A DNA stretch of 64,000 nucleotides from Gammaproteobacteria bacterium (GTDB taxonomy: Bacteria; Pseudomonadota; Gammaproteobacteria; Eutrophobiales; Eutrophobiaceae), in NCBI GenBank assembly GCA_963422205.2, contig CAXMWX010000005.1, positions 512,001 to 576,000 on the forward strand, read 5' to 3'. Below are positions 1 through 31,344 of this stretch, piece by piece (positions within the stretch are counted from its first letter, which is position 1; every line of letters starts with the position of its first letter). Made by a program: the position numbers and the translations under genes. The notes beneath the pieces are model-generated. The model was given only the letters and a program-made list of their open reading frames with translations, was not told the origin of the DNA and made no database searches.

Positions 1-1741
1 AATCCAGCAGGGGATCGAAATTAACCAGCAGGTAAGCGCTCAATGGCTGTGCCAGCATCTGGTGTGCATCCAGACCATCGATGCTCGCTGGCTTGCCGCC
101 ACACAGCCGGTGCGGTACGGCGCCCGCCTGCCAGGCCCCGACCACATTGGCCGCCTCACCCAGATAACCCAGCCGGACGCCGGTCAGCCCGGCCAGCCGA
201 CCGGCCAGATAGCGCAGCAGCGATAGCTGCGGATGGCTCATGGCCAGATTGCCCAGCAACACCGTACCCTTCTCGCCCCCCTGTTTAACCTTGAGCAAGG
301 CGCTGGCGATGCGCTCATGAGTCTCATCCGGGCGGATGCCAGCAAGCAGCCCACCCGCCCCGGCATCCTGGCCGCTCTGCTGCTCTGCCGCCTTGATAAC
401 ACCGGCCAGGGCGCCGACCATATCAGCCGCGCTCACCTGGGCGTACAATTCATAATTATACGCATCGGCCACCGGGTTGATGGTCATGATCGCCGCCCCT
501 TTTAATGCCGCCTTACGCAGGCGCAGGTTGATCAGCGGTTGATCCTTGCGTACATAACCACCGATGATCAGCACCGCCTCAAGGTCTTCCAGCACCGCCA
601 GACCAGCGCCCGGCTCATCGCCCAAGCCATCACTTAGGCCATCACCCAGGCCGGGCCAGGCGGGGGCGCTGTCCTGATCGGAAAAATCGGCCTGGCGCAG
701 GCGGTGATCAATATTGTTCGTCCCCAGGCCACGCATCAGTTTTTGCAGCAGGTACAGCTCCTCGGTCGTGGAATTGGCCGAAATCAGCGCACCCACCTTG
801 TCAATGCCATCCTGCTCAATGACCGCACCAAGCTGCTCGCCAATATGCACAAACGCCGTATCCCAGGCCACCTGCCGCCATTGCCCGTCGGTCTTTATCA
901 TCGGCGCCGCAAGACGTGCATCACTGTACATCCCTTCATAGCTGAAACGATCCCGATCGGATAACCAGACCTCGTTGATCGCCTCGTTCTCGGCCGGCAC
1001 AATGCGTTTCACGCGCCCGTCCCTGACGTGAAAATACAGATTGGACCCAACCGTATCATGAATGGCGATGCCGGGGTGCTGGCTCATCTCCCAGGCGCGG
1101 GCGGAGAAGCGGAACGGCTTGGCGGTCAAGGCACCGACCGGACACAGATCGATGACGTTGCCGGACAGCTCTGAGGTCATGCTTTTCTCTATGTACGTGC
1201 CAATCTCCATGAACTCGCCGCGGCCAGTCGCCCCCAACTCGCGCAGGCCGGCGATCTCCTCGCCAAAACGCACGCAACGGGTGCAATGGATGCAGCGGGT
1301 CATGTCCGTCTGCACCAGCGGGCCGATGTTTTTATCCTTGACAACGCGCTTGCCTTCCTGGTAGCGGGAGAGGTCGGCGCCGTAGCCCATCGCCAGGTCC
1401 TGCAATTCGCACTCCCCGCCCTGATCGCAGATCGGGCAATCCAGCGGGTGGTTGATCAGCAGAAATTCCATGACGGATTTTTGCGCTTCCAGGGCCAGTG
1501 CAGAACGAGTCTTCACCTTCATGCCGGCCATCACCGGCGTGGCGCAGGCCGGCAACGGCTTGGGCGCCTTCTCCACCTCAACCAGACACATGCGGCAGTT
1601 GGCCGCCACCGTCAGTTTTTTGTGGTAACAAAAGCGTGGTACGTAGTTATCGATGGAGTCAGTGACTTCGATCAACATCTGCCCAGCGCTCGCCTTGACC
1701 TGCTGGCCGTCAATCTCGATGGTGATCTGCTCATCTGCCAT
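1..1741 (-). CDS. nuoG: NADH-quinone oxidoreductase subunit G (partial, runs off the window start)
   Basis: Manual translation from ATG 1741: MADEQITIEIDG...PRFCYHKKLTVAANCRMCLVEVEKAPKPLPACATPV...INHPLDCPICDQGGECELQD...TRCIHCTRCVRF...CPVGALT, the canonical NuoG Fe-S motifs; directly downstream of nuoF. Not in the ORF track because it has no stop in the window. Confidence 0.97.
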   Translation of the reverse strand, partial: MADEQITIEIDGQQVKASAGQMLIEVTDSIDNYVPRFCYHKKLTVAANCRMCLVEVEKAPKPLPACATPVMAGMKVKTRSALALEAQKSVMEFLLINHPLDCPICDQGGECELQDLAMGYGADLSRYQEGKRVVKDKNIGPLVQTDMTRCIHCTRCVRFGEEIAGLRELGATGRGEFMEIGTYIEKSMTSELSGNVIDLCPVGALTAKPFRFSARAWEMSQHPGIAIHDTVGSNLYFHVRDGRVKRIVPAENEAINEVWLSDRDRFSYEGMYSDARLAAPMIKTDGQWRQVAWDTAFVHIGEQLGAVIEQDGIDKVGALISANSTTEELYLLQKLMRGLGTNNIDHRLRQADFSDQDSAPAWPGLGDGLSDGLGDEPGAGLAVLEDLEAVLIIGGYVRKDQPLINLRLRKAALKGAAIMTINPVADAYNYELYAQVSAADMVGALAGVIKAAEQQSGQDAGAGGLLAGIRPDETHERIASALLKVKQGGEKGTVLLGNLAMSHPQLSLLRYLAGRLAGLTGVRLGYLGEAANVVGAWQAGAVPHRLCGGKPASIDGLDAHQMLAQPLSAYLLVNFDPLLD

Positions 1742-10251: not shown

Positions 10252-12375
10252 ATGTGTACTTACCATCTACGGCTGTTAGCCGGGTCGCTGTTATTCGCTG
10301 GCAGCCACATCCCTGCCGCCCATGCCGAGCAGCAGAGGGACGCTTCAGGCTTGCCTGAAGTGAACATCACCGCCGACCCGCTCGGTGACGTGGAATCGCA
10401 TCTGGTCAAGCCGGTCGACCTCATCACCGCCGCCGAATTGCAGCGCCGTGGCATGGGTAATATCGGGGAGACCATCGCCAATCAACCTGGCGTTACCTCC
10501 AGCGACTTCGGCCCGGGCGCCGGGCGTCCCGTCATCCGAGGCTTAGGAGGCAGCCGGGTGAGCGTGCTTGAAAACGGCATCAGCACCCTGGATGTTGCCA
10601 GCATCAGCGCCGATCACAGCGTCACCACAGAAGCCGCCTTCGCCCGACAAATAGAGATCTTTCGTGGCCCGGCCAGCCTGCTGTTTGGCAGCGGTGCCAG
10701 TGCGGGCGTGGTGAATGTGGTGCATAAGCGGATACTGGACGACGTCCCGGCCCGCCCGGAAGGCACGCTGTCAATGCAGTATGAAACTGTCTCAGAGGGG
10801 ATAACGGGCGGCGGCAGTGTCAATGTCGGTGCAGGTAATATTGCCCTTCATCTGGATGGTCTGATACGTGATACCGAGGACTATGATATCCCCGGCTTTG
10901 CCGAGTTAGCGCCGGATGAGGATGAGCAGCGGGGGATGCTGGAGAACAGCTGGGTGAACACAGAGAACATCGCCGCCGGCCTGTCTTATGTGCAGGAGCA
11001 CGGATTTATCGGCTTCGCTGTCAGCCGCCTTACCAATGAATACGGCGTACCCGGCGGACATGGGCATGGACATGAAGAGGAGCATGGGCATGAGGAGGAG
11101 GATCACGAAGAGGAAGGGCATGAAGAGGAGGCCGAGGGCGGTGTGATGATCGATCTGAAACAAACGCGCTATGATATTGAGGCGGTGCTGGACAATCCGC
11201 TGCCAGGCATGGTCAAGCTGAGTACACACTGGGCCTACAACGATTATGCCCATGATGAGGTTGAGGCCAGTGGCGAGGTCGGTACGGCGTTTGAAAATGA
11301 TGAAGTGGAAGGGCGGGTGGAGTTTATCCACCAGCCAATCGCCGGTTGGGATGGGGCATTCGGCGTACAGTATCGCAACCGGGATTTCTCTGCACTGGGT
11401 GAAGAGGGCTTCGTGCCTCCCTCCCGCCTGGAGTCTATCGGCCTGTTCCTGGTAGAGAAAGCGGATTTCGGGCGCTGGCATGTCGAACTGGGCGCACGCT
11501 ATGAACATCAGAGCAGCAAGGCCGATACCCATGCCAGCCGCACAAGCCATGATCTCTACAGTACGTCTGCTGGTATGAGCTGGCACTACGCCGACAGCTA
11601 CGAGACAGGTATGGCCATCACCTACACCCAGCGTGCGCCCGCTATTGAAGAGCTGTATTCGAACGGCCCGCACCTGGCGACCAACACTTATGAGATCGGC
11701 AGTCCCCGGCTTGCCAAAGAGAGATCAACCAATGTGGATATCTACTGGCGCAAGATAACAGGCCGGTTTACCTTCAATGCCAACCTGTTCTACAACAGGA
11801 TTGATGATTTCATCTTCCAGCAGGAACAGGACAGGAATAATGACGGTGTGGCCGACCGGGTGGAAGAGGATTTTGATGCGGCATCTCCGGTTTTTGTGGA
11901 TGAGGATGATGCCTTGCTGCTGGTGATGCAAAGCCAGGATGATGCCGATTTTTACGGCCTTGAACTTGAAGGCAGCCTGCGCCTTGTTGAAGATAAGCAC
12001 AGCACACTGGACCTGCGCCTGTGGACTGACTATATCCAAGGCGAGCGCAGTGAGGGTATTAACCTGCCACGCATCACACCCTGGCGCTTCGGCGCCGGCA
12101 GCATCTATCAGCGCGGGCCGTGGCTTGCCTCGGTGGATTACACCCGGGTAAACAAACAGAATGATACAGCGCCACTGGAGACCCCAAGCGCTGGCTATAA
12201 CAGGCTCGATCTGTACGTCTCCTACACGACGGAACTGGCGGCCACCCGCCTTACGGTGTTTGCCAGTGCCAGCAACCTGTTAGATGAGGATATCCGCCGC
12301 CACACCTCGTTCATCAAGGCCGCCGCCCCGTTGCCCGGGCGCTCCGGCATGGCGGGTATTCGCGCCAGTTTCTGA
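10252..12375 (+). CDS. TonB-dependent receptor, ZnuD-like zinc uptake
   Basis: Signal peptide (AAHA-E), plug motifs FGPGAGRPVIRG and IEIFRGPASLLFGSG, His/Glu-rich loop GHGHGHEEEHGHEEEDHEEEGHEEE, C-terminal Phe; upstream Zur box. Confidence 0.88.
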   Translation: MCTYHLRLLAGSLLFAGSHIPAAHAEQQRDASGLPEVNITADPLGDVESHLVKPVDLITAAELQRRGMGNIGETIANQPGVTSSDFGPGAGRPVIRGLGGSRVSVLENGISTLDVASISADHSVTTEAAFARQIEIFRGPASLLFGSGASAGVVNVVHKRILDDVPARPEGTLSMQYETVSEGITGGGSVNVGAGNIALHLDGLIRDTEDYDIPGFAELAPDEDEQRGMLENSWVNTENIAAGLSYVQEHGFIGFAVSRLTNEYGVPGGHGHGHEEEHGHEEEDHEEEGHEEEAEGGVMIDLKQTRYDIEAVLDNPLPGMVKLSTHWAYNDYAHDEVEASGEVGTAFENDEVEGRVEFIHQPIAGWDGAFGVQYRNRDFSALGEEGFVPPSRLESIGLFLVEKADFGRWHVELGARYEHQSSKADTHASRTSHDLYSTSAGMSWHYADSYETGMAITYTQRAPAIEELYSNGPHLATNTYEIGSPRLAKERSTNVDIYWRKITGRFTFNANLFYNRIDDFIFQQEQDRNNDGVADRVEEDFDAASPVFVDEDDALLLVMQSQDDADFYGLELEGSLRLVEDKHSTLDLRLWTDYIQGERSEGINLPRITPWRFGAGSIYQRGPWLASVDYTRVNKQNDTAPLETPSAGYNRLDLYVSYTTELAATRLTVFASASNLLDEDIRRHTSFIKAAAPLPGRSGMAGIRASF

Positions 12376-12518: not shown

Positions 12519-13253
12519 ATGCACATTATTGATTTACAAAAAATCAGGGCGAAATGCAGCGAGTGCAGTCTGGCGGAGATGTGCCTGCCACGTGGCCTTA
12601 ATCAGCGCGATATGAAAAAACTGGAGGCGATTACCCGAAAAAGCCGACCGGTGAATCGGGGCGATTGTATTTATGATGCGGGCGAGCGGTTCAACGCCAT
12701 CTATGCGGTGAATGCCGGCAGCATAAAGATCTCCTTGTTGAATGATGCGGGCGAGGAGCAGATCATCGGCTTTTATCTGCCTGGCGAGATGTTCGGCTTT
12801 GATGGCATTGACGGGCAGACCTACACCTGCCGTGCCATTGCGATGGAGACCAGCACGCTGTGCGCTTTTCCGTTTACCAAACTTAACGATATCTGCCATG
12901 ACATCCCGCAGTTGCAGGAAGAGGTGCTACGCATCTTGAGCCGGGAAATCAGCTATGAGAATCAGTTGCTGATCACCATTAACAAAAAGACCGCCGAAGA
13001 GAAAACCGCCACCTTCCTGCTGTCATTGTCCTCACGCTTCAAACGGCTGGGCTACTCGCCGTATGAGTTCAAGCTCTCCATGTCACGGCAGGATATCGGC
13101 AATTATCTCGGGCTGACGATTGAAACGGTAAGCCGTATACTGAACCGCTTTCAAAGGGCCGGGCTGATCACGCTGCAACACCGGTTTGTCAAGATCACCA
13201 GCCATGCCGCATTACAGGGCATCTGCACATCGCATGAGGACAGTGCCGCCTAG
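12519..13253 (+). CDS. fnr: FNR/Anr family O2-sensing transcriptional regulator
   Basis: N-terminal CSECSLAEMCLP cysteine cluster; HTH SRQDIGNYLGLTIETVSR; next to the cco genes. Confidence 0.93.
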   Translation: MHIIDLQKIRAKCSECSLAEMCLPRGLNQRDMKKLEAITRKSRPVNRGDCIYDAGERFNAIYAVNAGSIKISLLNDAGEEQIIGFYLPGEMFGFDGIDGQTYTCRAIAMETSTLCAFPFTKLNDICHDIPQLQEEVLRILSREISYENQLLITINKKTAEEKTATFLLSLSSRFKRLGYSPYEFKLSMSRQDIGNYLGLTIETVSRILNRFQRAGLITLQHRFVKITSHAALQGICTSHEDSAA

Positions 13254-13414
13254 TCTATCTCCTTATCAGGCGGCCGGTCATCGTCCATCACTATCCGGTA
13301 GGCCGGGCCGTTCAAATCATCGTATTGCCCGGAGCGAATCGCCCAGCGCAGCAGGCAGGCGATGAGTAACACCAGTAACAGTGATAAGGGGATCAGCAGA
13401 TACAAAACCTCCAT
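13250..13414 (-). CDS. ccoS: cbb3-type cytochrome oxidase assembly protein CcoS (54 aa)
   Basis: Manual translation MEVLYLLIPLSLLLVLLIACLLRWAIRSGQYDDLNGPAYRIVMDDDRPPDKEID; WA.RSGQYDD motif; too short for the ORF track; abuts the ccoI stop. Confidence 0.92.
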   Translation of the reverse strand: MEVLYLLIPLSLLLVLLIACLLRWAIRSGQYDDLNGPAYRIVMDDDRPPDKEID

Positions 13415-15752
13415 CAGGCGGTTGTCCTTAATCGGGCCAGCCGGGTTGAATTCAGCACGACAATCAGCGAGCTGACAGACATGCCGATGGCAGCCAGCCA
13501 GGGGGTCAATATGCCGGCTATCGCCAGCGGCAGCGCCAGCAGATTATAGCCAACCGCCCAGAGGATATTCTGCTTGAGTACACGGACAAACCGGCGAGCC
13601 AGTTGATGCGCCTCGGTAATCTGCATCAGATCGCTGTTTAACAGGATCATATCGGCATTCAGTTTGGAGATATCCGCCCCATTGCCCATAGCGATCGATA
13701 CCGGCGAGACTGCCAATGCGGGCGCATCATTAATGCCGTCACCCACCATGACCACCATATCACCACGGTCTATCTTCTCTTGCAGATACGCCAGTTTCCC
13801 CTCCGGCAGCTGCGCGCCGATGGCCTCATCAAATCCCAGTTTATCGCCGATGGCCACCACCAGGCGCTGCCTGTCACCACTGAGCAGGATGGTCTGTTTA
13901 GCCTGTGCATTCAGGTAGCTGACCAGCGCGCCCACCCCGGGCCGTGGATAATCCTCCAGACCGATGGCGCATAACACAGCCGTTGAGGTGGTCAGAAATA
14001 CTTCCATGCCAATGGTCTCATCAAGCGTATCTCCAGCCGACTCATCCTGCTCAGGCAACAGGCCGGTCTGGCGGTTGATAAATGCCGCACTGCCCAGAAA
14101 ATAGTGGCACTGATCTATCTTTGCTGTGACCCCGGCGCCCGGATGGTTGACAAGGTTGCAGGTCGGTAACAACTCGCCATGATCAGCAGCAGCACGAATG
14201 GCACGGGCTATCTGGTGGTCTGATTTGGCCTCCAGGCTGGCCGCCAGCTTCAGGCAGTGTGCCTTCGACAGCCCGGAGAACAAGGTCAGCCCGGAGACCT
14301 GCATCTCGCCGGTCGTCAAGGTGCCGGTCTTATCAAAGATAAACACCTGGGCGGCGGCCAGGGCCTGCAACACATTCTGCCCCAGCACGGCGACCCCGCG
14401 CCCCAGCATGGCGTTGTTCGCCGCCGTGTAAGCCGTTGGCGTGGCCAGGGACAATGCACACGGACAGGTCACCACCAGCACGGCAATTGTCACCCCCAGC
14501 CAGCTGGAGGCATCATGCAGATACCAGTACACACCGGTGACACAGGCGATCAGGATAACGGCCATGACAAACCCGCCAGCAAAGCGATTGATGATGGCCG
14601 TCAGCCGGGGTTTTTGCTGATGGCCCTGTTCAATCAGCCGCAAAATCTGCTGCAATCGGGTGTTGTTACCCACGGCGGTCACTTCGACTGTCAAAGGGGC
14701 ATACATGTTCGTGCTGCCGGCGATCAGCGCGTCCCCGGCCTTCTTCGTAACCGGTCTGGCTTCGCCGGTCAGCAGCGCCTCATCCACCGCACTGTCCCCG
14801 CTCATCACCACACCATCGACCGGAATATGCTCCCCGGCGTACACCAGGATCAGATCGCCCGGTTGCAGCTTGATGGCGGGTATCACATCAATCTGATTTG
14901 CATCAGTCTGATCTGCATCAGTCTGATCTGCTGGGGCAGGCGTTATTTTATTGGCGGTGTCCGGCTTCACGCGGTAGAGTTTTTCGAGATGCCGGTTGGC
15001 ATCAAGCCGGGTTTGAAATTCAAAATAACGGCTGATCAACAACAACAATATCAGCACGCAGATAGAGTCAAAATAGACCTCGCCCCGGCCTGAAACAGTC
15101 GCCAGGGCGCTGCCGATGAACGCTATCGTCAGCCCCAGCACCACCGGCACATCCATGCTGAGACTGCGATTTTTCAGATCACGCCAGGCGTTGATGAAAA
15201 ACGACTGGCCTGAATACACCATGACCGGCACGGTCAGCAACATGGCCACCCAGTGCAGGAAACGCTGCATGTCGGCATCCATATCCCAGGCCATATTCCA
15301 GGCACCAAAATACAAGCCAATAGATATCATCATGACCTGCATACCGAACAGCGCCGCACTGCCTATGTGCAGCAGTGCGGTTCTTTTTGCCTGTGTTTGT
15401 TGCAGTGCTTTTTGTTTGTGGTGAAAAGGCCAGGCTTGAAAACCCAGCTCATGGATACCGGCCAGGATATGGCTAAGTGGCAGCCGGGCAGGTTGCCAGA
15501 GCACTTCTGCGGTATGCGTGGAGTAATTCACCACCACACGGTCAACCCCTTCCAGCCCGGCAGATGGGATTCGATCTTCCAGCTACAGGACGGGCAACTG
15601 ATCCCCGCCAGACTGAATACGGCGGATGAGCGCTGTTGATCTGCAACCGTCACATACGCCTGCTGCAATAGCGGATCATCATAAACAGCAAAGGCCGCCG
15701 CCCCCGCGGCGGCGCTGGACAGGTCTTCAGTGTGAGCTATTGAGGCCATCAT
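13414..15752 (-). CDS. ccoI: P1B-type copper ATPase CcoI/FixI, split by a one-base frameshift near 15561
   Basis: CPC, DKTGTLT and GDGINDAP motifs in 13414-15537; the HMA CxxC domain (GISCPSCSWKIE) is in ORF 15528-15752. Adding one G restores HLAGLEGVDRVVVNYST. Confidence 0.9.
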
Positions 15753-23698: not shown

Positions 23699-25265
23699 AA
23701 CACTGGACAAGCGAGAGGTGGTGATTGTCGGTGCCGGGGCGGCGGGCAGCGCTTATGCCGCGTATCTGGCCGAAGCGGGCAAAGATGTGCTGGTGCTGGA
23801 ACGAGGGGCGGTGCGCCGTTTAAGCGATCTGTACAGCTCGCAGATCTGGGCACGGCGTTTGAAATGGGGCGCACCCGTCGTGGTGGAGGAGGGGGCGGAT
23901 ACGATTTGGTATAACTTTAATTCAGGCCATGGTTTTGGCGGGGCGGCCATCCATCATTACGGAGTCTGGCCGCGATATCACCCGGAGGATATGGCGCTTG
24001 ACAGCCGCTATGGGCGCGGGCTGGACTGGCCGTTTGGCTATGATGTGCTGCGGCCGTATTACGATCAGGTGCAGGCCGAGGTGGGGCTGTCCGGCGATGC
24101 CGAGCAGGAGATCTGGCGACCGCCCGGCGCCCCTTATCCGCTGCCGCCGGTGCTGGTCAGCAACCACGGTCGCACCCTGGCCACCGGCTTTCATGCGCTC
24201 GGCATACCAACGGCACCGATACCGGTTGCCGTCTTGTCAGCCCCCTACCAGGGTCGGCCTGCCTGCCTCTGGGATGGCTGGTGTGATGCCGGTTGTCCAA
24301 CGGGCGCCCTGGCCAACCCGCTGGTCACCTACAAGCCGCGCGCAACACAGGCCAGGGCCGAGTTTCGGGCGCATGCCGAGGTCACCCGTCTGCTGGATGA
24401 TGAGGCCGGCAGGCGGGTGGCGGCGGTGGTGTATTATGATCAGAACAACAGGCAATGTATTCAGCCGGCGGATGTGGTGGTCTTGTGTGCATTCACGGTT
24501 GAGAACGTCCGTCTGCTGCTGAACTCCGCCTCCGGCAGGCACCCCAGGGGCCTCGCAAACAGCAGCGATACTCTCGGACGCTATCTGATGTCGCACCCGG
24601 CGGTGAGCGTGTTCGGCCTGTTTGATAAGGAGATGGAGAACTACCTGGGCCTGACCGGCGGGCAGTTACTGGTGCAGTCGGCCTTTGCCAAGCAGAGCGA
24701 TCCCGGTGGTGCGTTTGGCAGCCGGCAGTGGGTCGTCGGGCCGGCCTTAAAACCCAATGATCTGCTCGGGATTGCGATGACGCGCCCTGATCTGTACGGC
24801 CAGGAGTTAGATACGTTCATGTATCGCAGCGCCCATAAGATGGGCTGCATGGTCGCCGCTGTGGAAGAGCAGCCGAACCGGAATAACCGCATCCGTCTGG
24901 CCGCTGCCAAAGACAGGCACGGCATGCCGCTGGCCAGGATCAGCTACACCACCGGCGAGGATGCACGCCGGCTCTGGCAGAGCGCAGTCAAGGAGGGCAT
25001 GGCGGTCATGACGGCGGCGGGGGCGACAGAGACCTGGCACGGGCCGCAAGGCGGGCAACATATCATGGGCGGTACAATCATGGGCAAAGACAGCCGGCGG
25101 TCGGTGAGCAATGAACATGCACAGAGCCATGATATAAGCAATCTGTTTATCGGCGGCCCCAGCCTGCTGCCGACCAGTTCCTGTGTGAACTCCACCTTCA
25201 CTGTGCATGCATTGGCGCTGAAGTCCGCCCGGTTTATGATAGAGCATTGGGATGCGCTTGTTTGA
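23691..25265 (+). CDS. GMC family oxidoreductase flavoprotein
   Basis: VVIVGAGAAG...LERG, GHGFGGA, CLWDGWCDAGCP, HIMGGTIMG, NSTFTVHALA; start refined to ATG 23691. Confidence 0.9.
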   Translation: MAKTLDKREVVIVGAGAAGSAYAAYLAEAGKDVLVLERGAVRRLSDLYSSQIWARRLKWGAPVVVEEGADTIWYNFNSGHGFGGAAIHHYGVWPRYHPEDMALDSRYGRGLDWPFGYDVLRPYYDQVQAEVGLSGDAEQEIWRPPGAPYPLPPVLVSNHGRTLATGFHALGIPTAPIPVAVLSAPYQGRPACLWDGWCDAGCPTGALANPLVTYKPRATQARAEFRAHAEVTRLLDDEAGRRVAAVVYYDQNNRQCIQPADVVVLCAFTVENVRLLLNSASGRHPRGLANSSDTLGRYLMSHPAVSVFGLFDKEMENYLGLTGGQLLVQSAFAKQSDPGGAFGSRQWVVGPALKPNDLLGIAMTRPDLYGQELDTFMYRSAHKMGCMVAAVEEQPNRNNRIRLAAAKDRHGMPLARISYTTGEDARRLWQSAVKEGMAVMTAAGATETWHGPQGGQHIMGGTIMGKDSRRSVSNEHAQSHDISNLFIGGPSLLPTSSCVNSTFTVHALALKSARFMIEHWDALV

Positions 25266-25316
25266 GCGGCGGGCTCAACGCAAAAACGCACAGGTTGTAT
25301 TGATGAATGTCAGCCT

Positions 25317-26204
25317 ATGAATAACACCCGTCTGGTATGTATTGACCAGCCAGAGGCACTGCGTCGGCTTTGTCACCAACTGCATGGGTGTTCCTGGCTG
25401 GCCGTGGACACAGAATTTGAACGCACGAAGACCTACTACCCCGAATTGTGTCTATTGCAGTTAAGCAATACCAGGCTGACGGCCATTATTGATCCGCAGG
25501 CGATAACCGATCTGTCGCCGTTATATGCCGTGCTCTATGATCCCGGCATCACGCTGGTGTTCCATGCTGCACGTCAGGACTTAGAAATATTTTATCATCA
25601 TCACCATGCCATCCCGCTGCCCTTGTTCGATACCCAGATCGCTGCCGGACTGTTGGGTTATGAGGATCAGATCGGTTACGCCAGACTGGTGGCAGAAGAA
25701 CTACAGGTGCAGCTGGCCAAATCGGCCACCCGCACTGACTGGAAACGCCGGCCATTAACCGATAAGCAACGGCACTATGCGGCTGATGATGTCGGCTATT
25801 TGAGCCAGCTCTACCCTATCTTGCGGAAAAAATTAATCGCAGCGGATCTGCTGGCGAAGCACGATGCGCGGTGTCATGCGCTCACCCGGCCTGAAACCTA
25901 TCAGCCCGACCCGGACAGCCTCTGGCGAAAGATCAATGCTGCCTCGCAATTACCGGAGGCACAGCGCATCGTGCTGCAGAAGCTGACGTCCTGGCGTGAA
26001 CTCACGGCACAGAAGAAAAACCTGCCGCGTCAATGGGTGCTGCCCAACCGGGTGCTGGTAGAGCTGGCCCGTTGCCTGCCGGATAACAGCGCCGAACTTG
26101 CCAGAACAGCCGGGATGAATAAGAAAACCATACAACGCTACGGCCATGTATTACTGGCGATCATTCAACGCTGGCAGGAAAATAATAGCGACATGCCCGC
26201 CTGA
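25317..26204 (+). CDS. rnd: Ribonuclease D (short form, one HRDC domain)
   Basis: AVDTEFERTKTYYPELCLLQL, FHAARQDLE, FDTQIAA, TDWKRRPL..YAADDV, WRE..A...NLPR HRDC. Confidence 0.9.
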   Translation: MNNTRLVCIDQPEALRRLCHQLHGCSWLAVDTEFERTKTYYPELCLLQLSNTRLTAIIDPQAITDLSPLYAVLYDPGITLVFHAARQDLEIFYHHHHAIPLPLFDTQIAAGLLGYEDQIGYARLVAEELQVQLAKSATRTDWKRRPLTDKQRHYAADDVGYLSQLYPILRKKLIAADLLAKHDARCHALTRPETYQPDPDSLWRKINAASQLPEAQRIVLQKLTSWRELTAQKKNLPRQWVLPNRVLVELARCLPDNSAELARTAGMNKKTIQRYGHVLLAIIQRWQENNSDMPA

Positions 26205-26222
26205 TTCACCTACTATGGCGGT

Positions 26223-27539
26223 ATGATAGCGAATGCGTTTTTCTGGGGTGTGATCAGCGCTATCGCCTTGCCCATCGGGGCGTTTCTGGGCATGTGGTTA
26301 CGCCCCGGCCACAAGGTGAATTCCATCTTCATGGCCTTTGGCGGGGGCGCCTTGCTGTTTGCATTGACCATTGAATTGTTCGGTCATGTCCCGCACCACG
26401 TTCAGTCTCATGGCAGCCGCCTCATCTGGGTGGTCTTCATCTGTGCCATCGTTGGCGGCCTGATCTTCTCCGGCCTCAATGCGCTGTTGAACAATCATGG
26501 GGCGTTCATGCGCCGCTTCTCCAGCGCCCGTGCCTTTCTTGCCAGACTCAAACACAAACGCACCCGCCTGCTGGCGGCACGCCTCGGCCGCATCGAGCTG
26601 TTAAATGCGCTCCCGCCTGAGTTGATGGCCAGCCTGCTGAACCGGGTGCAATTAAAAAAATACCCGGCGGGGGCGTATATCTGCCGACAGGATGAGGAGG
26701 CGAACGAGATGTTTTTCATCCTGGATGGTCAGGTTGAGATTATCCGGCATGAAGACGAGCAGCAAACCCTGATCGCTACCCTGGATGCCTATCAGAGCTT
26801 TGGCGAGCTAGGGCTGTTAAGCGGCTGCCTTCGAACCGCCGATGCCATTGCCAAAGGTGATGTGCAGGTCTATGCCATTGCCGTCGATGATTTCCAGCAC
26901 CTGCTCAAAAAAGACAAGACCCTGCATGAGAAGGTTCTGCGGCTGGCCACGACACGGCTGGATAACCTGCTGGAGAGGGCCCACGCACATGTCGATCAGG
27001 CCCGCTATCAAAACGCCTTTGATGCGTTGCTGGATGAACACCATGTCTCTGTCAGCAAAGCGGAGATCAAACACGAGGGGCAAAGCCGCGCCAGGGGCAA
27101 TGCCGCACTGGCTATCTGGATGGGGATTTTTATCGACTGCATCCCGGAGTCGCTGGTCATCGGTATGCTGGCCGCCAGCAGCGATGGCATCAGCCTGGCC
27201 TTTATCATCGGCGTCTTCCTGGCGAATATGCCGGAGGCCATGTCCAGCTCGGTCAGTATGCGCGAGAACGGCCTGAAACTGCATAGCATTTATCTGATGT
27301 GGGGCTCGATCACCGTGATCACTGGTCTGGGGGCGGCCTTAGGCGCATTCATCTTCCCGCCTGATCCTGTCGGCAGCTTGTTTTATCTGATGGTTGGCCT
27401 GGAGGCGCTGGCCGCCGGTGCCATGCTGACCATGATCGCTGAGACCATGTTGCCGGAGGCATTTTCACTGGGCGGTTCGGTGGTCGGCCTGTCTACGCTG
27501 GCAGGCTTTCTGACCGCCCTGATGGTGAAGATCATCTAA
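26223..27539 (+). CDS. ZIP (ZupT-like) metal transporter with an inserted cyclic-nucleotide-binding domain
   Basis: ZIP motifs MAFGGGALL, IDCIPESLVIG, FLANMPEAMSS, AAGAMLTMIAETMLPEAF flank a CNBD (YPAGAYICRQDE..NEMFFILDGQV...FGELGLL...RTADAIA). Confidence 0.82.
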   Translation: MIANAFFWGVISAIALPIGAFLGMWLRPGHKVNSIFMAFGGGALLFALTIELFGHVPHHVQSHGSRLIWVVFICAIVGGLIFSGLNALLNNHGAFMRRFSSARAFLARLKHKRTRLLAARLGRIELLNALPPELMASLLNRVQLKKYPAGAYICRQDEEANEMFFILDGQVEIIRHEDEQQTLIATLDAYQSFGELGLLSGCLRTADAIAKGDVQVYAIAVDDFQHLLKKDKTLHEKVLRLATTRLDNLLERAHAHVDQARYQNAFDALLDEHHVSVSKAEIKHEGQSRARGNAALAIWMGIFIDCIPESLVIGMLAASSDGISLAFIIGVFLANMPEAMSSSVSMRENGLKLHSIYLMWGSITVITGLGAALGAFIFPPDPVGSLFYLMVGLEALAAGAMLTMIAETMLPEAFSLGGSVVGLSTLAGFLTALMVKII

Positions 27540-27542
27540 GCG

Positions 27543-28658
27543 ATGAGCAGGCAATTCCTGTGCACCTTTCTGCTGCCCGGCGTTATCTTGCAGTCCATTA
27601 TGATCAGCTATGGTTACGGCAGCGGGCAGGACTTGCGGTATTTCTTTCTTAGCCAGGGGCCGCGGCACGGCCTGTACAGCCTGGTGTTCATCGTCACCCC
27701 GCTGATCAGCCTGGTAGCAGTGCTTACCTTTGAGTTTGCCCGCATATTTCAGGCATATAATTACCGGGCGTTTTTTCGGCATCTGCTGGGCAAAGCATGG
27801 TTTCTCTGGGAGCTGGCTTATCTTGTCACGCTGATGCTGTTGTTTGCCTTGATCGGTGCGGCCACAGGCGAGATTTTTGCACACACACCGGGGCTGCCCG
27901 AAACCGCCGCCTCCGAAACGATAGCGCTGTTGTTTCTGCTGGTCGTTACCGCCTGGCTGGTGTATCACGGCACTGGCCTGATTGAGCGCATGCTGGTGTT
28001 CGGCTCGGTCGTGCTGTACCTGACCTACCTTGCGTTTCTCATCTGGTCTTTGGCCCTGTTTGGCGAGAACATCAGCACGGCATGGCAATGGCAGCCTCGC
28101 TCCCGTGAGTGGGCACAGAGCGGGCTGCACTATGCCAGCCTGCAACTTGGCCTGCTGCCAGTCGTATTGTTTGCCCTGCGCCACATAAAGACGCGTCGCC
28201 AGGCGGTGCTGTCCGGCCTGCTGGCGGGGCCGATGGCCTTGATACCGGCGATATTGCTCTATCTTGTTATGCTCATGCACTACCCGGATATCCCAACCCG
28301 CACGGCACCGTCTGCTGTGCTGCTGGCCGCCCTGCAGGCACCGTGGTTTGCGCTGCTGTTTCACGGGGTGTTGCTGGGCACCCTGATTGAGACCGGCGCC
28401 GGGGCAGTGCATGCGGTCAATGAACGGCTGGCGGATTACTGTCAGGCCACTGATAAAAAACTGCCGCCACAGGTACGCCCGATCAGCGCCCTGCTGCTGC
28501 CTGGCATTGCCGGTGTGTTATCAAAAATCGGCCTGGCCGGGAGCATGGCGCTGGCGGCAAATACCGTTGCGGCCTTTCTCCTGCTGTGTTTTCTCCTGCC
28601 GCTGATCCTCATCGGGATACCGAAGATGATAAGGGCCGGCGCCCATCAGCGCGGTTAG
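27543..28658 (+). CDS. YkvI-like multi-pass membrane protein (putative transporter)
   Basis: LLPGVILQSIMISYGYGSGQDL..FF, about 10 TM segments, GTLIETGAG. Confidence 0.7.
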   Translation: MSRQFLCTFLLPGVILQSIMISYGYGSGQDLRYFFLSQGPRHGLYSLVFIVTPLISLVAVLTFEFARIFQAYNYRAFFRHLLGKAWFLWELAYLVTLMLLFALIGAATGEIFAHTPGLPETAASETIALLFLLVVTAWLVYHGTGLIERMLVFGSVVLYLTYLAFLIWSLALFGENISTAWQWQPRSREWAQSGLHYASLQLGLLPVVLFALRHIKTRRQAVLSGLLAGPMALIPAILLYLVMLMHYPDIPTRTAPSAVLLAALQAPWFALLFHGVLLGTLIETGAGAVHAVNERLADYCQATDKKLPPQVRPISALLLPGIAGVLSKIGLAGSMALAANTVAAFLLLCFLLPLILIGIPKMIRAGAHQRG

Positions 28659-28724
28659 TGCATGAGCGAACACCGCCGCAATCGTGTATGCTTCTCTGGC
28701 CATGGTTTCTGATACACTGCCCTG

Positions 28725-29495
28725 ATGCCAAGCTGGTATGTGTATATCGTAAAATGTGCCGATGACAGCCTGTACACCGGCGTGACCACAGACATTGTGC
28801 GCCGCCTGCAAGAGCATAATCAGTCCAGACGGGCCGCAGCCTACACCCGAACAAGGCGTCCGGTGGCCCTTGTCTATACAGAAGCGCTCGCTGATCGCAG
28901 CGCGGCATGCAGGCGTGAGGCGGAGATCAAGTCGCTTGACCGGCAGGCAAAACACACACTCATAGCCACGGCGGATACGCCATATATCCGGCCCATCAAT
29001 GCGGCACAAAAGACGGCTGTTGAGGCCCTGACCCGGGATTATATTGACCAGGCAGGCCGGTTATTCGGTCAGGCGTTTCAGCCGATAGCGGTCGTGTTCG
29101 ATCTGTCGGGCCGGGCGGCCGGGATGTACAAGATAAAACGGGGGCAGCGGATGATCCGCTACAACCCCTGGTTATTTGCAAAATACTATGCAGAAAGCCT
29201 GACGAATACGGTGCCCCACGAGGTCGCACATTATATCGTCGATTGCCTGTATGACCGTCGGCATACCCGCCCCCACGGCCCGGCGTGGCAAGACGTGATG
29301 CAGCGCTTCGGGGCCGAATGCCGGGTTACCGGCGAGTATGATCTGACCGGCATACCGGTGAGAAAACAGCGCACATTTACCTACCGGTGCGGCTGTCGCC
29401 AGTATGAGATCAGCTGTGTCCGCCACAAGCGTATTCAGCGCGGGGTGGCGTATTGTTGTCGGCACTGCCATGCCCCCATTGCCGCCATTGCCTGA
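28725..29495 (+). CDS. GIY-YIG nuclease fused to a SprT-like zinc metalloprotease
   Basis: N-terminal WYVYIVKCADDSLYTGVTTDIVRRLQEHN...REAEIK (YhbQ-type GIY-YIG); C-terminal GRAAG, PHEVAH, HGPAW, YRCGC, YCCRHC (SprT plus Zn ribbon); one open frame. Confidence 0.85.
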   Translation: MPSWYVYIVKCADDSLYTGVTTDIVRRLQEHNQSRRAAAYTRTRRPVALVYTEALADRSAACRREAEIKSLDRQAKHTLIATADTPYIRPINAAQKTAVEALTRDYIDQAGRLFGQAFQPIAVVFDLSGRAAGMYKIKRGQRMIRYNPWLFAKYYAESLTNTVPHEVAHYIVDCLYDRRHTRPHGPAWQDVMQRFGAECRVTGEYDLTGIPVRKQRTFTYRCGCRQYEISCVRHKRIQRGVAYCCRHCHAPIAAIA

Positions 29496-29647
29496 GTTGA
29501 CTGGCAGTGATATCGTCAATTTATGCCTGAGTGATCGCAAAAAAACGCCGCATCTAACAGAAATCATCGGGAAAATTGGACATTCTCACACATTCTACTT
29601 ATGCTTGTGCTGGTTTGACTACACGATGAAGACTTCAAAGGTGATCT

Positions 29648-29848
29648 ATGTATAACATAATCAAATTGTGCCTGTTCAGCGCCCTGCTGATCCTGGCAGC
29701 TTGCGGCGACAAACCGCCTGCAAGCGGTTCAACCTCAACCACCGATACGGCCACATCAGCCGATAGCACCATGGACAGGCAACTGCCGGAAGGCCCCATT
29801 GAGACGCCTGAATGGGCGAAATTAGAGCACACCGTGATTACCAATTAA
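29648..29848 (+). CDS. Small hypothetical lipoprotein (66 aa), possibly truncated
   Basis: Signal with an LAAC lipobox followed by an S/T-rich linker. Confidence 0.55.
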   Translation: MYNIIKLCLFSALLILAACGDKPPASGSTSTTDTATSADSTMDRQLPEGPIETPEWAKLEHTVITN

Positions 29849-30144
29849 TCACACGGGCAAATGAGGCCGGGGCGCAACCAACCTCTTGGCCCTTAAAATA
29901 TGGACATCAACAGGGACACTCATCGTTTGCTGAGAAGCACCGACATGTTATGGCGCGGTCCTAATAATAGCCCCAGGAATAGCCTTGGGAATCGCCCTGT
30001 AAACCGCCCTGGGAGTATTGTTGGTCATTCCCCGGCGTGGCGTTAAGCTGTCAAGAGATGACACGCAAGCCAAGATAAACAGATGATCTGCCTAGACCAT
30101 TCCTCAAGCATCACGGCTTTTGTAGGCTGATTGAGGAGCAGACT

Positions 30145-31344
30145 ATGTCGTTTGAAGACATCGGCTTGATCGCCGAGTTACAGTGTGCTGTTGCCGATGA
30201 GGGTTACACGCACCCCACCCCCGTACAGATACAATCCATCCCGGCTATCCTCGCAAAACGCGATCTGATGGTCGGTGCCCAGACTGGCACAGGCAAGACC
30301 GCCGGTTTCACCCTGCCTATGTTGCAGCTCATCAAGCAATCCCAGGATACCGCGCAGGCACATCAGGCCGAGGCAATCATCAGGGCCCTGATACTCGTTC
30401 CCACGCGCGAGTTGGCCGCACAGGTGGGGGAGAGTGTACGCACTTATGGCAAATACCTGCCGCTGCGATCAGCCATCGTATTTGGCGGTGCGGCTATACA
30501 CAAGCAAATAGAGCGACTGGCAAAAGGGGTCGACATCCTGATCGCAACGCCGGGGCGGCTGCTGGATCACGTGCAGAGAAAGACGGTTGATTTATCTCAC
30601 GTCAGCTTTTTTGTGCTGGATGAGGCGGATCGTATGCTGGATATGGGCTTCATTAACGACATTCGCAAATTGCTGCACATCATTCCTAAGCAAAGGCAGA
30701 ACCTGTTGTTCTCCGCCACGTACTCCAATGAGATTAAACGCCTGGCCGATCGCTTGCTAAACAACCCGGAGATGATCCAGATAGAGACGGAAAATTCATC
30801 TGCCAAAGGCATCAAGCAAATCATACATCCGGTCGATCACTCCAGCAAACGGCAGCTACTCATGAAGATACTGGCCGATAACCCCGATGCCCAGGTGCTG
30901 ATTTTTATGAATATGAAACATTCCGCCGGCCGGCTGGCCGAGCGGATTAAAAAAGCGGGCGTCAATGCCTGTGCCATCCACGGCGATAAGACGCAGTCGC
31001 AAAGAGTGGCGGCATTAAAAAATTTCAAACAGGGGAAGGTGCGGGTGCTGGTGGCCAGCGATCTCGCCGCCCGCGGCATTGACATTGAAGACCTGCCTTT
31101 TGTCATCAACTATGATCTGCCGCTGGAGGCGGAAGTTTACATCCACCGTATTGGCCGCACCGGCCGCGTTGGCAAGACCGGGGTCGCCATATCGCTGGTG
31201 GCGGCTGATGAATCGGCCCTGCTGAAAAACATCGAAAAACTGATTGCCAGGCAACTGCCGCAGAAAGTCGTGCCGGGTTTTGAGCCGGATACCCGCATCA
31301 CACGCCTGTATGTGCCAGGCCAGCCGCTGTCACAACGCTCCTGA
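30145..31344 (+). CDS. rhlE: DEAD-box ATP-dependent RNA helicase, RhlE-like
   Basis: AQTGTGKT, PTRELA, TPGRLLDH, DEAD, SAT, ARGID, HRIGRTGR; GAGGAG RBS. Confidence 0.9.
   Translation: MSFEDIGLIAELQCAVADEGYTHPTPVQIQSIPAILAKRDLMVGAQTGTGKTAGFTLPMLQLIKQSQDTAQAHQAEAIIRALILVPTRELAAQVGESVRTYGKYLPLRSAIVFGGAAIHKQIERLAKGVDILIATPGRLLDHVQRKTVDLSHVSFFVLDEADRMLDMGFINDIRKLLHIIPKQRQNLLFSATYSNEIKRLADRLLNNPEMIQIETENSSAKGIKQIIHPVDHSSKRQLLMKILADNPDAQVLIFMNMKHSAGRLAERIKKAGVNACAIHGDKTQSQRVAALKNFKQGKVRVLVASDLAARGIDIEDLPFVINYDLPLEAEVYIHRIGRTGRVGKTGVAISLVAADESALLKNIEKLIARQLPQKVVPGFEPDTRITRLYVPGQPLSQRS

Follow-up and report, generated by a model that had tools for sequence, protein, structure and literature searches.

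A ZIP-family membrane protein with a cyclic nucleotide-binding domain between transmembrane helices 3 and 4, a candidate second-messenger-regulated metal transporter

Gene, predicted fold and family

We describe here a gene at nucleotides 26223 to 27539 (+ strand) of a 64,000-nucleotide stretch of DNA from a member of the Gammaproteobacteria (assembly GCA_963422205.2, contig CAXMWX010000005.1, positions 512,001 to 576,000; the whole stretch is referred to below as the window). The gene, which we call the CNBD-ZIP gene, encodes a 438-residue protein of the ZIP family of metal transporters, and the loop between its transmembrane helices 3 and 4 (TM3 and TM4) holds a complete cyclic nucleotide-binding domain (CNBD) with a canonical phosphate-binding cassette, as judged by Pfam, by fold matches, and by homologue alignment. 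This architecture had been proposed in an initial annotation made from the DNA letters alone, and its particulars hold: the motifs that it quoted are found in the translation (FGELGLLSGCLRTADA at residues 193-208, IDCIPES at 304-310, and ANMPEA at 334-339), and the range of about 26600-26960 that it gave for the CNBD agrees with residues 123-250 (nucleotides 26589-26972). The features of the gene are as follows.

26223..27539, + strand: the CNBD-ZIP gene as a whole, an ATG-started open frame of 438 amino acids plus stop, with both Pfam families above cut-off
26223..26495, + strand: ZIP TM1 to TM3 (residues 1-91), from AlphaFold2 helices 2-26, 30-52, and 66-91 and the structural match to BbZIP
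within 26223..26495, + strand: E51 on TM2 and a His-rich HVPHH motif (residues 55-59) in the loop after TM2, from the translation
26502..26588, + strand: post-TM3 motif and basic linker helix leading from TM3 to the CNBD (residues 94-122), from AlphaFold2 helices 94-97 and 99-122
26589..26972, + strand: CNBD (residues 123-250), from PF00027, the fold matches 5bv6_A and 4d7s_A, and Foldseek
26799..26846, + strand: phosphate-binding cassette FGELGLLSGCLRTADA (residues 193-208), from column conservation in 83 homologues
26973..27101, + strand: post-CNBD linker (residues 251-293), low in model confidence at 250-257, then helices 260-272 and 279-290 leading into TM4
27102..27533, + strand: ZIP TM4 to TM8 (residues 294-437), from the best PF02535 stretch, the AlphaFold2 helices, and the BbZIP match
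27132..27152, + strand: TM4 metal-site motif IDCIPES (residues 304-310), from alignment via the insert-less relative P0266
27219..27239, + strand: TM5 metal-site motif LANMPEA (residues 333-339), from the same alignment

Pfam analysis found both families above their curated cut-offs, with the Zip family (PF02535) split around the cyclic nucleotide monophosphate (cNMP)-binding family (PF00027) just as the initial annotation had expected of a HMMER search. PF00027 matches residues 145-231 (E 1.5e-21, 76.6 bits against a cut-off of 27.5). PF02535 matches in two stretches separated by the insert, the better of which aligns residues 257-415 with positions 140-297 of the 323-position profile (E 1.3e-9, 38.2 bits against 35.1); relatives of the same clade that have no insert score 75-76.5 bits. 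The CNBD is the only strong match of the protein in NCBIfam, and the score against the ZupT equivalog NF003243 is 25.6 bits against a cut-off of 252, so the protein is not a ZupT orthologue. Homologues align with it over its full length, from residue 1 to the last.

An AlphaFold2 model built from an 83-row alignment of single-CNBD homologues has a mean predicted local distance difference test score (pLDDT) of 88.5 and a predicted template modelling score (pTM) of 0.73, with pLDDT falling below 50 at residues 250-257 only. Its transmembrane helices lie at residues 2-26, 30-52, and 66-91 and then at 294-318, 325-348, 353-377, 385-417, and 420-437; a long basic linker helix (99-122) precedes a complete CNBD at about 123-248, comprising the N-terminal helix, beta roll, cassette helix, and B and C helices, and two short helices (260-272 and 279-290) stand ahead of TM4. 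When this model was aligned to each of 48,161 representative solved chains, the ZIP structure BbZIP (7z6m_A) ranked first (Z 24.5, root mean square deviation 2.5 A, 231 of 238 residues, 22% identity, model range 1..438), so that the flanks of the CNBD model together as one ZIP fold of three plus five helices. The same wide fold search matched the insert to CNBDs of known ligand-binding proteins, namely the CNB-B domain of cGMP-dependent protein kinase II (PKG II; 5bv6_A, Z 18.7, 1.9 A over 143 aligned residues), LliK (5v4s_A, Z 17.8), SthK (4d7s_A, Z 17.5), MloK1 (2k0g, Z 16.3), and the sperm exchanger SLC9C1 (9ydf_A, Z 15.3; 8pcz_A, Z 14.4), and overall it gave Z scores of 15-19 to cNMP-bound CNBDs of PKG, PKA, HCN, SthK, MloK1, and SLC9C1. 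A Foldseek search of the PDB with the whole model returned CNBDs for all of its top matches, BbZIP emerging only in the wide fold search. PDB sequence searches with the transmembrane halves alone (residues 285-438 and 1-95) gave no match at E up to 10, and the link to ZIPs is therefore drawn through Pfam, through the fold, and through the insert-less relative P0266. By their E-values and the fold match, the domain and fold assignments lie far beyond chance.

The model also speaks to a possible likeness to cyclic nucleotide-gated channels. Channel chains match through their CNBD parts only, at model residues 103-249, and the membrane part matches BbZIP; neither the sequence nor the fold matches gave any sign of a tetrameric pore with a selectivity filter ahead of the CNBD. 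Prediction of a homodimer returned an interface score (ipSAE) of 0.50 (0.49-0.51 in three runs) against 0.00 for the best of three controls; the mark applied to this score is reached by 20 of 30 proteins solved as same-chain pairs and by 1 of 23 solved as single chains. At least 87% of the contacts are common to the runs, with partner pLDDT of at least 63, and the confident contacts fall in TM2 (38-60), TM3 (65-87), TM7 (399-414), and TM8 (418-438) and include no CNBD residue. This predicted dimer may reflect likeness to the known dimer of BbZIP.

The protein is not a one-off fusion but belongs to a large conserved ZIP clade defined by its CNBD architecture. Of the 7999 candidates scored in a word-index search, 1077 proteins had E up to 1e-3, and precomputed Pfam matches for the best 120 of the 1077 (414-464 residues) gave PF00027 together with PF02535 in 114 and PF00027 only in 6. 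The homologue survey that the initial annotation had suggested thus recovered the same architecture in 114 of the 120 best homologues. A second survey looked for peptide-pattern matches in one genome for each of 185,579 species; it gave at least 588 matching stretches, and a relative is encoded in at least 490 of the species genomes, which belong to many phyla. The 79 loci that were kept came, among the matches listed, from Gammaproteobacteria, Spirochaetota, Nitrospinota, Bdellovibrionota, Hydrogenedentota, Desulfobacterota, Myxococcota, Gemmatimonadota, Latescibacterota, Acidobacteriota, Bacteroidota, and several candidate phyla. The carriers among these matches are almost all metagenome-assembled genomes, the one cultured isolate being Allohahella marinimesophila JCM 17555 (locus L054), and the closest relatives listed, at 66-68% identity, are from uncultured Gammaproteobacteria, including Candidatus Eutrophobius brisbanensis. 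The distribution of the gene within the class of the window is patchy: of 401 genomes sampled, 4 have it at E up to 1e-40, the window's own genome and the unpublished genome G141 being among them, and it was found in neither of two genomes of the window's own family.

An exhaustive HMMER search of representatives at 50% identity found 287 proteins at E up to 1e-30, and among 269 family proteins both transmembrane cores occur with one CNBD in 183, with two in 49, with three in 9, and with none in 15, the remaining 13 being fragments. A midpoint-rooted FastTree phylogeny of the transmembrane cores was built from 125 of 138 representatives with both cores, the other 13 being left out because their cores were incomplete. 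The backbone of this tree consists of single-CNBD forms, tandem forms of about 610 residues form one nested clade, and the long (680-930 residues) multi-CNBD forms together with most CNBD-less forms make another clade beside the group of the window's protein. The tandem forms include a protein of the green sulfur bacterium Pelodictyon luteolum (613 residues), and eukaryotic source names appear among the long and CNBD-less forms: Vitrella brassicaformis (864 residues), Chromera velia (925 residues; 'Zinc transporter ZIP11'), and Pelomyxa schiedti. Alveolates are among the carriers. The tandem and multi-CNBD proteins, which are uncharacterised and whose clades are nested among the single-CNBD forms, have the same transmembrane core signature and the same insertion point, but in them the single domain gives way to two or three CNBDs or to long low-complexity loops. 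The 438-residue protein of the window is thus an intact member of a large clade, and we infer its function from the evidence presented below.

Sensor domain and metal site

The cassette of the window's protein has the residues Gly-Glu and Arg-Thr-Ala (G194, E195, R204, T205, and A206), the equivalents of which hold the ribose and phosphate in CNBDs. Across the 83 homologues G194 is kept in all, E195 in 77, R204 in 72, and A206 in 65, and position 205 is T or S in 49; E195 and R204 are kept together in 71. Rules that assign a preference for cAMP or cGMP from the cassette (Arg-Thr) are not decisive. Mean column conservation in the same alignment is highest in TM4-8 (0.64), followed by the cassette (0.60), TM1-3 (0.57), the CNBD as a whole (0.44), and, lowest of all, the post-CNBD linker (0.28). 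Two residues just after TM3, G93 and R97, are shared by all 83 homologues. Within the post-CNBD linker, strong conservation is confined to residue 262 (nucleotides 27006-27008), which is Trp in 80 of 83 homologues and Tyr here.

The insert might nonetheless have the CNBD fold and sense neither cAMP nor cGMP, responding to another small molecule or to none and acting in a ZIP carrier as a constitutive regulatory, autoinhibitory, or interaction module. Twelve of the 83 homologues lack the cassette Arg, the Glu, or both and yet keep the whole architecture, and part of the family therefore cannot bind a cNMP in the canonical manner; the fold neighbours include sensors of other effectors of the CRP/FNR type (NtcA, which senses 2-oxoglutarate, FNR, FixK2, and DNR); and no cyclase gene adjoins the CNBD-ZIP gene, either in the window or among the 60 of 125 nearest neighbours of related genes that were scanned. 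Against these stand the intact ribose-phosphate Gly-Glu and Arg here and in the 71 homologues noted above, the conservation of the cassette well above that of the whole CNBD, the identity of the best sequence and fold matches, which are true cNMP binders, and the presence of class III cyclases in 50 of 50 carrier genomes tested. Taken together, we consider a CNBD that does not respond to cAMP or cGMP rather unlikely, and favour cNMP sensing.

A possible source of ligand exists in the window's own genome (2.99 Mb in 14 contigs, 98% complete), where one class III cyclase gene is intact, nine CNBD matches occur, and the CNBD-ZIP protein is the one ZIP; no class I cyclase was found there. A second class III cyclase domain, outside the window at G000:C7:735167-736571 (- strand), is spread over several short frames with an in-frame TAG, and may be a broken gene or an assembly error. 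For comparison with the 50 carrier genomes, all with PF00211 over its cut-off, the same family passes in 200 of 301 sampled genomes of the window's class (including the unpublished genomes G039, G141, G296, and G308). A cyclase in every carrier is no more than the proposed sensing would require, and the comparison is not a matched one, the carriers being drawn from other phyla that are rich in cyclases.

To compare the transport site with that of BbZIP, the insert-less relative P0266 was aligned to BbZIP chains (E of about 5e-5) and the correspondence was carried over to the window's protein by shared motifs. In this alignment LHNLPEG of BbZIP TM4 corresponds to IDSFPES of P0266 and IQDVPEG of TM5 to LANLPEA, and the Glu of GLMEPLG in TM6 is aligned with Ala. 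In BbZIP, according to PMC9873690, H177, N178, E181, Q207, D208, E211, and E240 plus M99 make up a binuclear metal centre, of which M1 is the primary transport site. The positions correspond as follows.

BbZIP H177: D305 (via the P0266 alignment)
BbZIP N178: C306, a position that is Gly in 60 of 83 homologues
BbZIP E181: E309
BbZIP Q207: A334, a position that is A in 54 and S in 27 of 83 homologues
BbZIP D208: N335
BbZIP E211: E338
BbZIP E240, the second-site Glu: A371

The P-E pairs of TM4 and TM5 (E309 and E338) are thus kept, and the BbZIP centre is altered at H177, N178, Q207, D208, and E240. The replacements that the initial annotation had noted, D and A in place of the usual TM4 and TM5 ligands, are borne out, since the His177 and Gln207 positions of BbZIP are Asp305 and Ala334. 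Among the 83 homologues D305 is kept in 83, E309 in 80, N335 in 81, and E338 in 82, and position 51 of TM2 is E in 74 and D in 8. In a weaker stretch of the alignment E51 falls at S106 of BbZIP and L44 at M99. S106 has been suggested to contact Q207 and perhaps to chelate the metal in the outward-facing state (PMC9873690), and the positions equivalent to S106 and Q207 would both be changed here (E51 and A334), the TM2 stretch being non-significant on its own. We read the site as a single, all-oxygen metal site: by sequence comparison, the His ligand and the second BbZIP site (N178 to G or C, E240 to A) have probably been lost. Such a site hints at broad specificity or at a harder cation as substrate (Mn2+, Fe2+, perhaps Mg2+ or Ca2+) and leads away from a zinc-specific role.

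The same substitutions might be taken further, to mean that the ZIP-fold core carries no transition metal and instead moves another ion (Mg2+, Ca2+, or protons) or forms a cNMP-controlled leak or channel, in an ion pathway for second messengers and not for metal nutrition. The changes H177 to D, Q207 to A or S, N178 to G or C, and E240 to A are conserved across the family, the ZupT equivalog is missed by far, no link to metal-homeostasis genes, riboswitches, or regulators was seen in the loci scanned, and the genome already has Nramp and ZnuA systems. All of this would fit, but TM4/TM5 P-E pairs, D305, N335, E394, and E412 are kept as in metal-carrying ZIPs, the fold match to BbZIP is close, and to our knowledge no ZIP has been shown to have a non-metal or alkaline-earth substrate as its main role. 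We therefore consider a core that carries no transition metal quite improbable, and a metal-carrying ZIP the better account.

Genomic context

The CNBD-ZIP gene begins 18 nt after an RNase D-like gene (25317-26204), and its stop lies 3 nt before the gene for a 371-residue polytopic membrane protein (27543-28658, + strand). A single promoter-like site was seen, and it precedes the RNase D gene. The downstream membrane protein belongs to no Pfam family, and its ESM Atlas features resemble those of the YkvI family (score 0.97). This arrangement is not conserved: an RNase D gene is near the CNBD-ZIP gene in 2 of the 79 loci and a YkvI-like gene in none, the DEAD-box helicase neighbour of the window has a single weak match among the 79 (23% identity, in the Allohahella locus), and the other neighbours have none. 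The largest cluster of neighbours other than the gene itself spans 5-6 of the 79 loci. One cluster of six loci was rejected, as it consisted of opposite-strand open reading frames lying over the CNBD-ZIP gene, an artefact of frame calling. Pfam analysis of the 60 of 125 nearest neighbours revealed mixed housekeeping genes and no metalloregulator.

The one loose theme among these 60 neighbours is the presence of GGDEF/EAL or PilZ genes near the CNBD-ZIP gene in 6 loci, a loose hint of a second-messenger neighbourhood. Three gammaproteobacterial genomes that are close relatives of one another encode a GAF-PAS-GGDEF-EAL protein directly downstream (L001, 6388-8592; L004, 6367-8571; L006, 6374-8578), GGDEF proteins adjoin the gene in L031 and L034, and a PilZ protein adjoins it in L003. 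In three loci from Bdellovibrionia/Bdellovibrionales (L010, L011, and L012), the gene stands between a gene for a PASTA-domain penicillin-binding transpeptidase and two Mur ligase genes, and thus inside a cell-wall synthesis cluster.

No Rfam riboswitch was found at 24000-30500 of the window or in the 47 of 79 related loci scanned, where a tRNA was the only match, and no upstream motif shared between the window and its seven closest loci was apparent by eye. L001 and L004 have in common an A+T-rich inverted repeat, ATGACAT...ATGTCAT, about 130-160 nt upstream of the gene start, which may be a regulator site and which is absent upstream of the window's copy. Composition showed no anomaly at 18-36 kb of the window. 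Elsewhere in the window, a single open reading frame at 28725-29495 (+ strand) joins a GIY-YIG nuclease domain (residues 4-74) to an SprT-like metalloprotease domain (residues 106-198), and a CRP/FNR-family regulator with a CNBD of its own (12519-13253, + strand) is flanked by a TonB-dependent receptor (10252-12375, + strand) and an opposite-strand P-type ATPase (13414-15537).

These surroundings bear on a further explanation, in which the protein is an anti-phage effector of the Pycsar type, its CNBD and membrane helices damaging the membrane upon cCMP or cUMP production by a defence cyclase. PADLOC models of PycTIR and related effectors match residues 108-248 (E 6.6e-14 and weaker), cUMP-bound CNBDs of PycTIR are structural neighbours (8jsk_B, Z 16.9), and the occurrence of the gene is as patchy as described above for its class and family. 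But the PADLOC matches (the PycTIR, TIR effector, and PycC models) cover the CNBD only, with no match to PycTM; no cyclase (PF00211) lies beside the gene in the window or among the neighbours scanned; the membrane part has the complete and strongly conserved form of a ZIP, its metal-site residues intact; and the region has housekeeping neighbours and no compositional anomaly. With matches confined to the CNBD and no adjacent cyclase in the window or among the 60 neighbours scanned, the Pycsar effector was rejected as very improbable.

Proposed mechanism and relation to known systems

Our reading of the protein, to which we give a probability of about one half, is that of a cNMP-regulated ZIP for divalent cations, a homodimeric elevator-type carrier that is probably not zinc-specific and whose TM3-TM4 loop has been replaced by one canonical CNBD. 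The CNBD would probably let a second messenger switch metal transport, a control of metal flux by cAMP or cGMP that we infer from the sequence and the modelled structure. In BbZIP, alpha4 belongs to the sliding Domain I, and alpha3 and alpha7 belong to the static Domain II, which mediates the dimer (PMC9873690), and an insert between TM3 and TM4 would therefore bridge both halves.

In the mechanism that we propose, cAMP or cGMP from the class III cyclase(s) of the cell would bind to the cassette (E195, R204, and T205) of a CNBD tethered on one side to TM3, in the static scaffold half, and on the other to TM4, in the moving transport half, which carries D305 and E309. A ligand-driven shift of the terminal helices of the CNBD could then release the transport domain to slide or hold it back or, alternatively, movement of the CNBD helices could open or block the cytoplasmic exit, and metal flux into the cytoplasm would thereby come under second-messenger control. 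Such control could be either activating or inhibiting. As for the route of coupling, a flexible and poorly conserved segment at residues 250-293 argues against a rigid C-terminal lever, that is, a mechanical link to TM4; from conservation and the model we favour coupling via the conserved post-TM3 segment (G93 and R97) together with the linker helix, or docking of the CNBD on the cytoplasmic face.

Several observations weigh against this reading and are gathered here. The post-CNBD linker (250-293) through which the sensor would meet TM4 is the least conserved region and includes the low-confidence residues 250-257, and the 12 homologues of 83 without the cassette Arg, Glu, or both fall outside canonical sensing. 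No cyclase adjoins the gene, in the window or among the neighbours scanned, and the co-occurrence with cyclases is weak evidence, the carriers being drawn from cyclase-rich phyla, the background from a single class, and related genomes being non-independent. On the side of the metal, no conserved neighbour, no metal riboswitch in the window and the 47 of 79 loci, and no metalloregulator site names a substrate; the genome has one Nramp protein and one ZnuA-type protein (with FeoB_N matches only in GTPase-sized frames), so no obvious gap in its transporters points to one; and the TM2 mapping (E51 to S106, L44 to M99) rests on an alignment stretch that is non-significant alone.

The nearest known proteins are BbZIP of Bordetella bronchiseptica (PDB 7z6m, 5tsa, 8ght, and others), ZupT of E. 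coli, and prokaryotic ZIPs of the GufA type, with which the CNBD-ZIP protein has in common the fold of eight transmembrane helices and, in the P0266 alignment with BbZIP, the P-E pairs in TM4 and TM5 and, in TM7, an AAGAM stretch. BbZIP also forms a dimer through its scaffold helices (PMC9873690), as is predicted for the CNBD-ZIP protein. The two differ in the 130-residue CNBD plus linkers that occupy the TM3-TM4 loop and in the altered metal centre, whose ligands would all be oxygen and whose second site has probably been lost. 'Gated', the word used in the initial annotation, is a term proper to channels, whereas ZIPs have been described as elevator-type carriers (PMC9873690).

The sensor, in turn, resembles those of MloK1, SthK, LliK, and the hyperpolarization-activated (HCN) and cyclic nucleotide-gated (CNG) channels, which have a canonical CNBD with the same cassette, and the logic of MloK1, SthK, and LliK, a cytoplasmic cNMP sensor fused to an ion pathway, is that proposed here. 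In contrast to CNG-type channels, the membrane part is a ZIP-fold carrier and not a tetrameric pore, the CNBD is internal between membrane segments instead of C-terminal behind a C-linker, and the predicted oligomer is a dimer without confident CNBD contacts, unlike the tetrameric channels. A secondary transporter with a CNBD is known in SLC9C1, the sperm Na+/H+ exchanger (PDB 8pcz and 9ydf), whose CNBD has a role in regulation. It differs in its unrelated Na+/H+ exchanger fold, in the C-terminal placement of its CNBD alongside a voltage-sensor domain, and in being eukaryotic.

The initial annotation had named no characterised example of this design, and our search agrees with it: no paper on a CNBD-bearing ZIP was found in the full-text literature searched, which was that outside subscription journals. 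Term searches within PMC9873690 and PMC13192868 gave no mention of cyclic nucleotides; the latter divides the ZIP family into five major subfamilies 'and many smaller groups'. The CNBD-ZIP design is widespread and, in the literature searched, unstudied. A bolder form of our proposal, which we put forward tentatively as possible but on balance doubtful, is that the clade is ancient, spanning many bacterial phyla and alveolates, and that its CNBD clamps TM3 to TM4, with cAMP or cGMP directly starting or stopping the elevator stroke of a single-site, all-oxygen carrier of Mn2+, Fe2+, or another hard cation. If this were true, the clade would provide the first ligand-switched ZIP, and second-messenger signalling would be wired directly to the flux of metal ions.

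The posttranslational regulation of ZIPs and the control of their elevator movement are poorly understood. A ZIP with a defined small-molecule sensor for its regulatory loop would offer a natural on/off handle, a means of trapping conformations for structures, and a way to test the elevator model, and the altered, His-free single site may help to define the determinants of metal selectivity in the ZIP family. Most bacterial carriers among the matches listed are uncultured, but Allohahella marinimesophila JCM 17555 is a cultured carrier that could serve for genetics. If the proposed regulation is correct, bacteria, and perhaps alveolates too, would have a direct link between cAMP or cGMP signalling and metal-ion flux, of which we found no instance in the literature searched.

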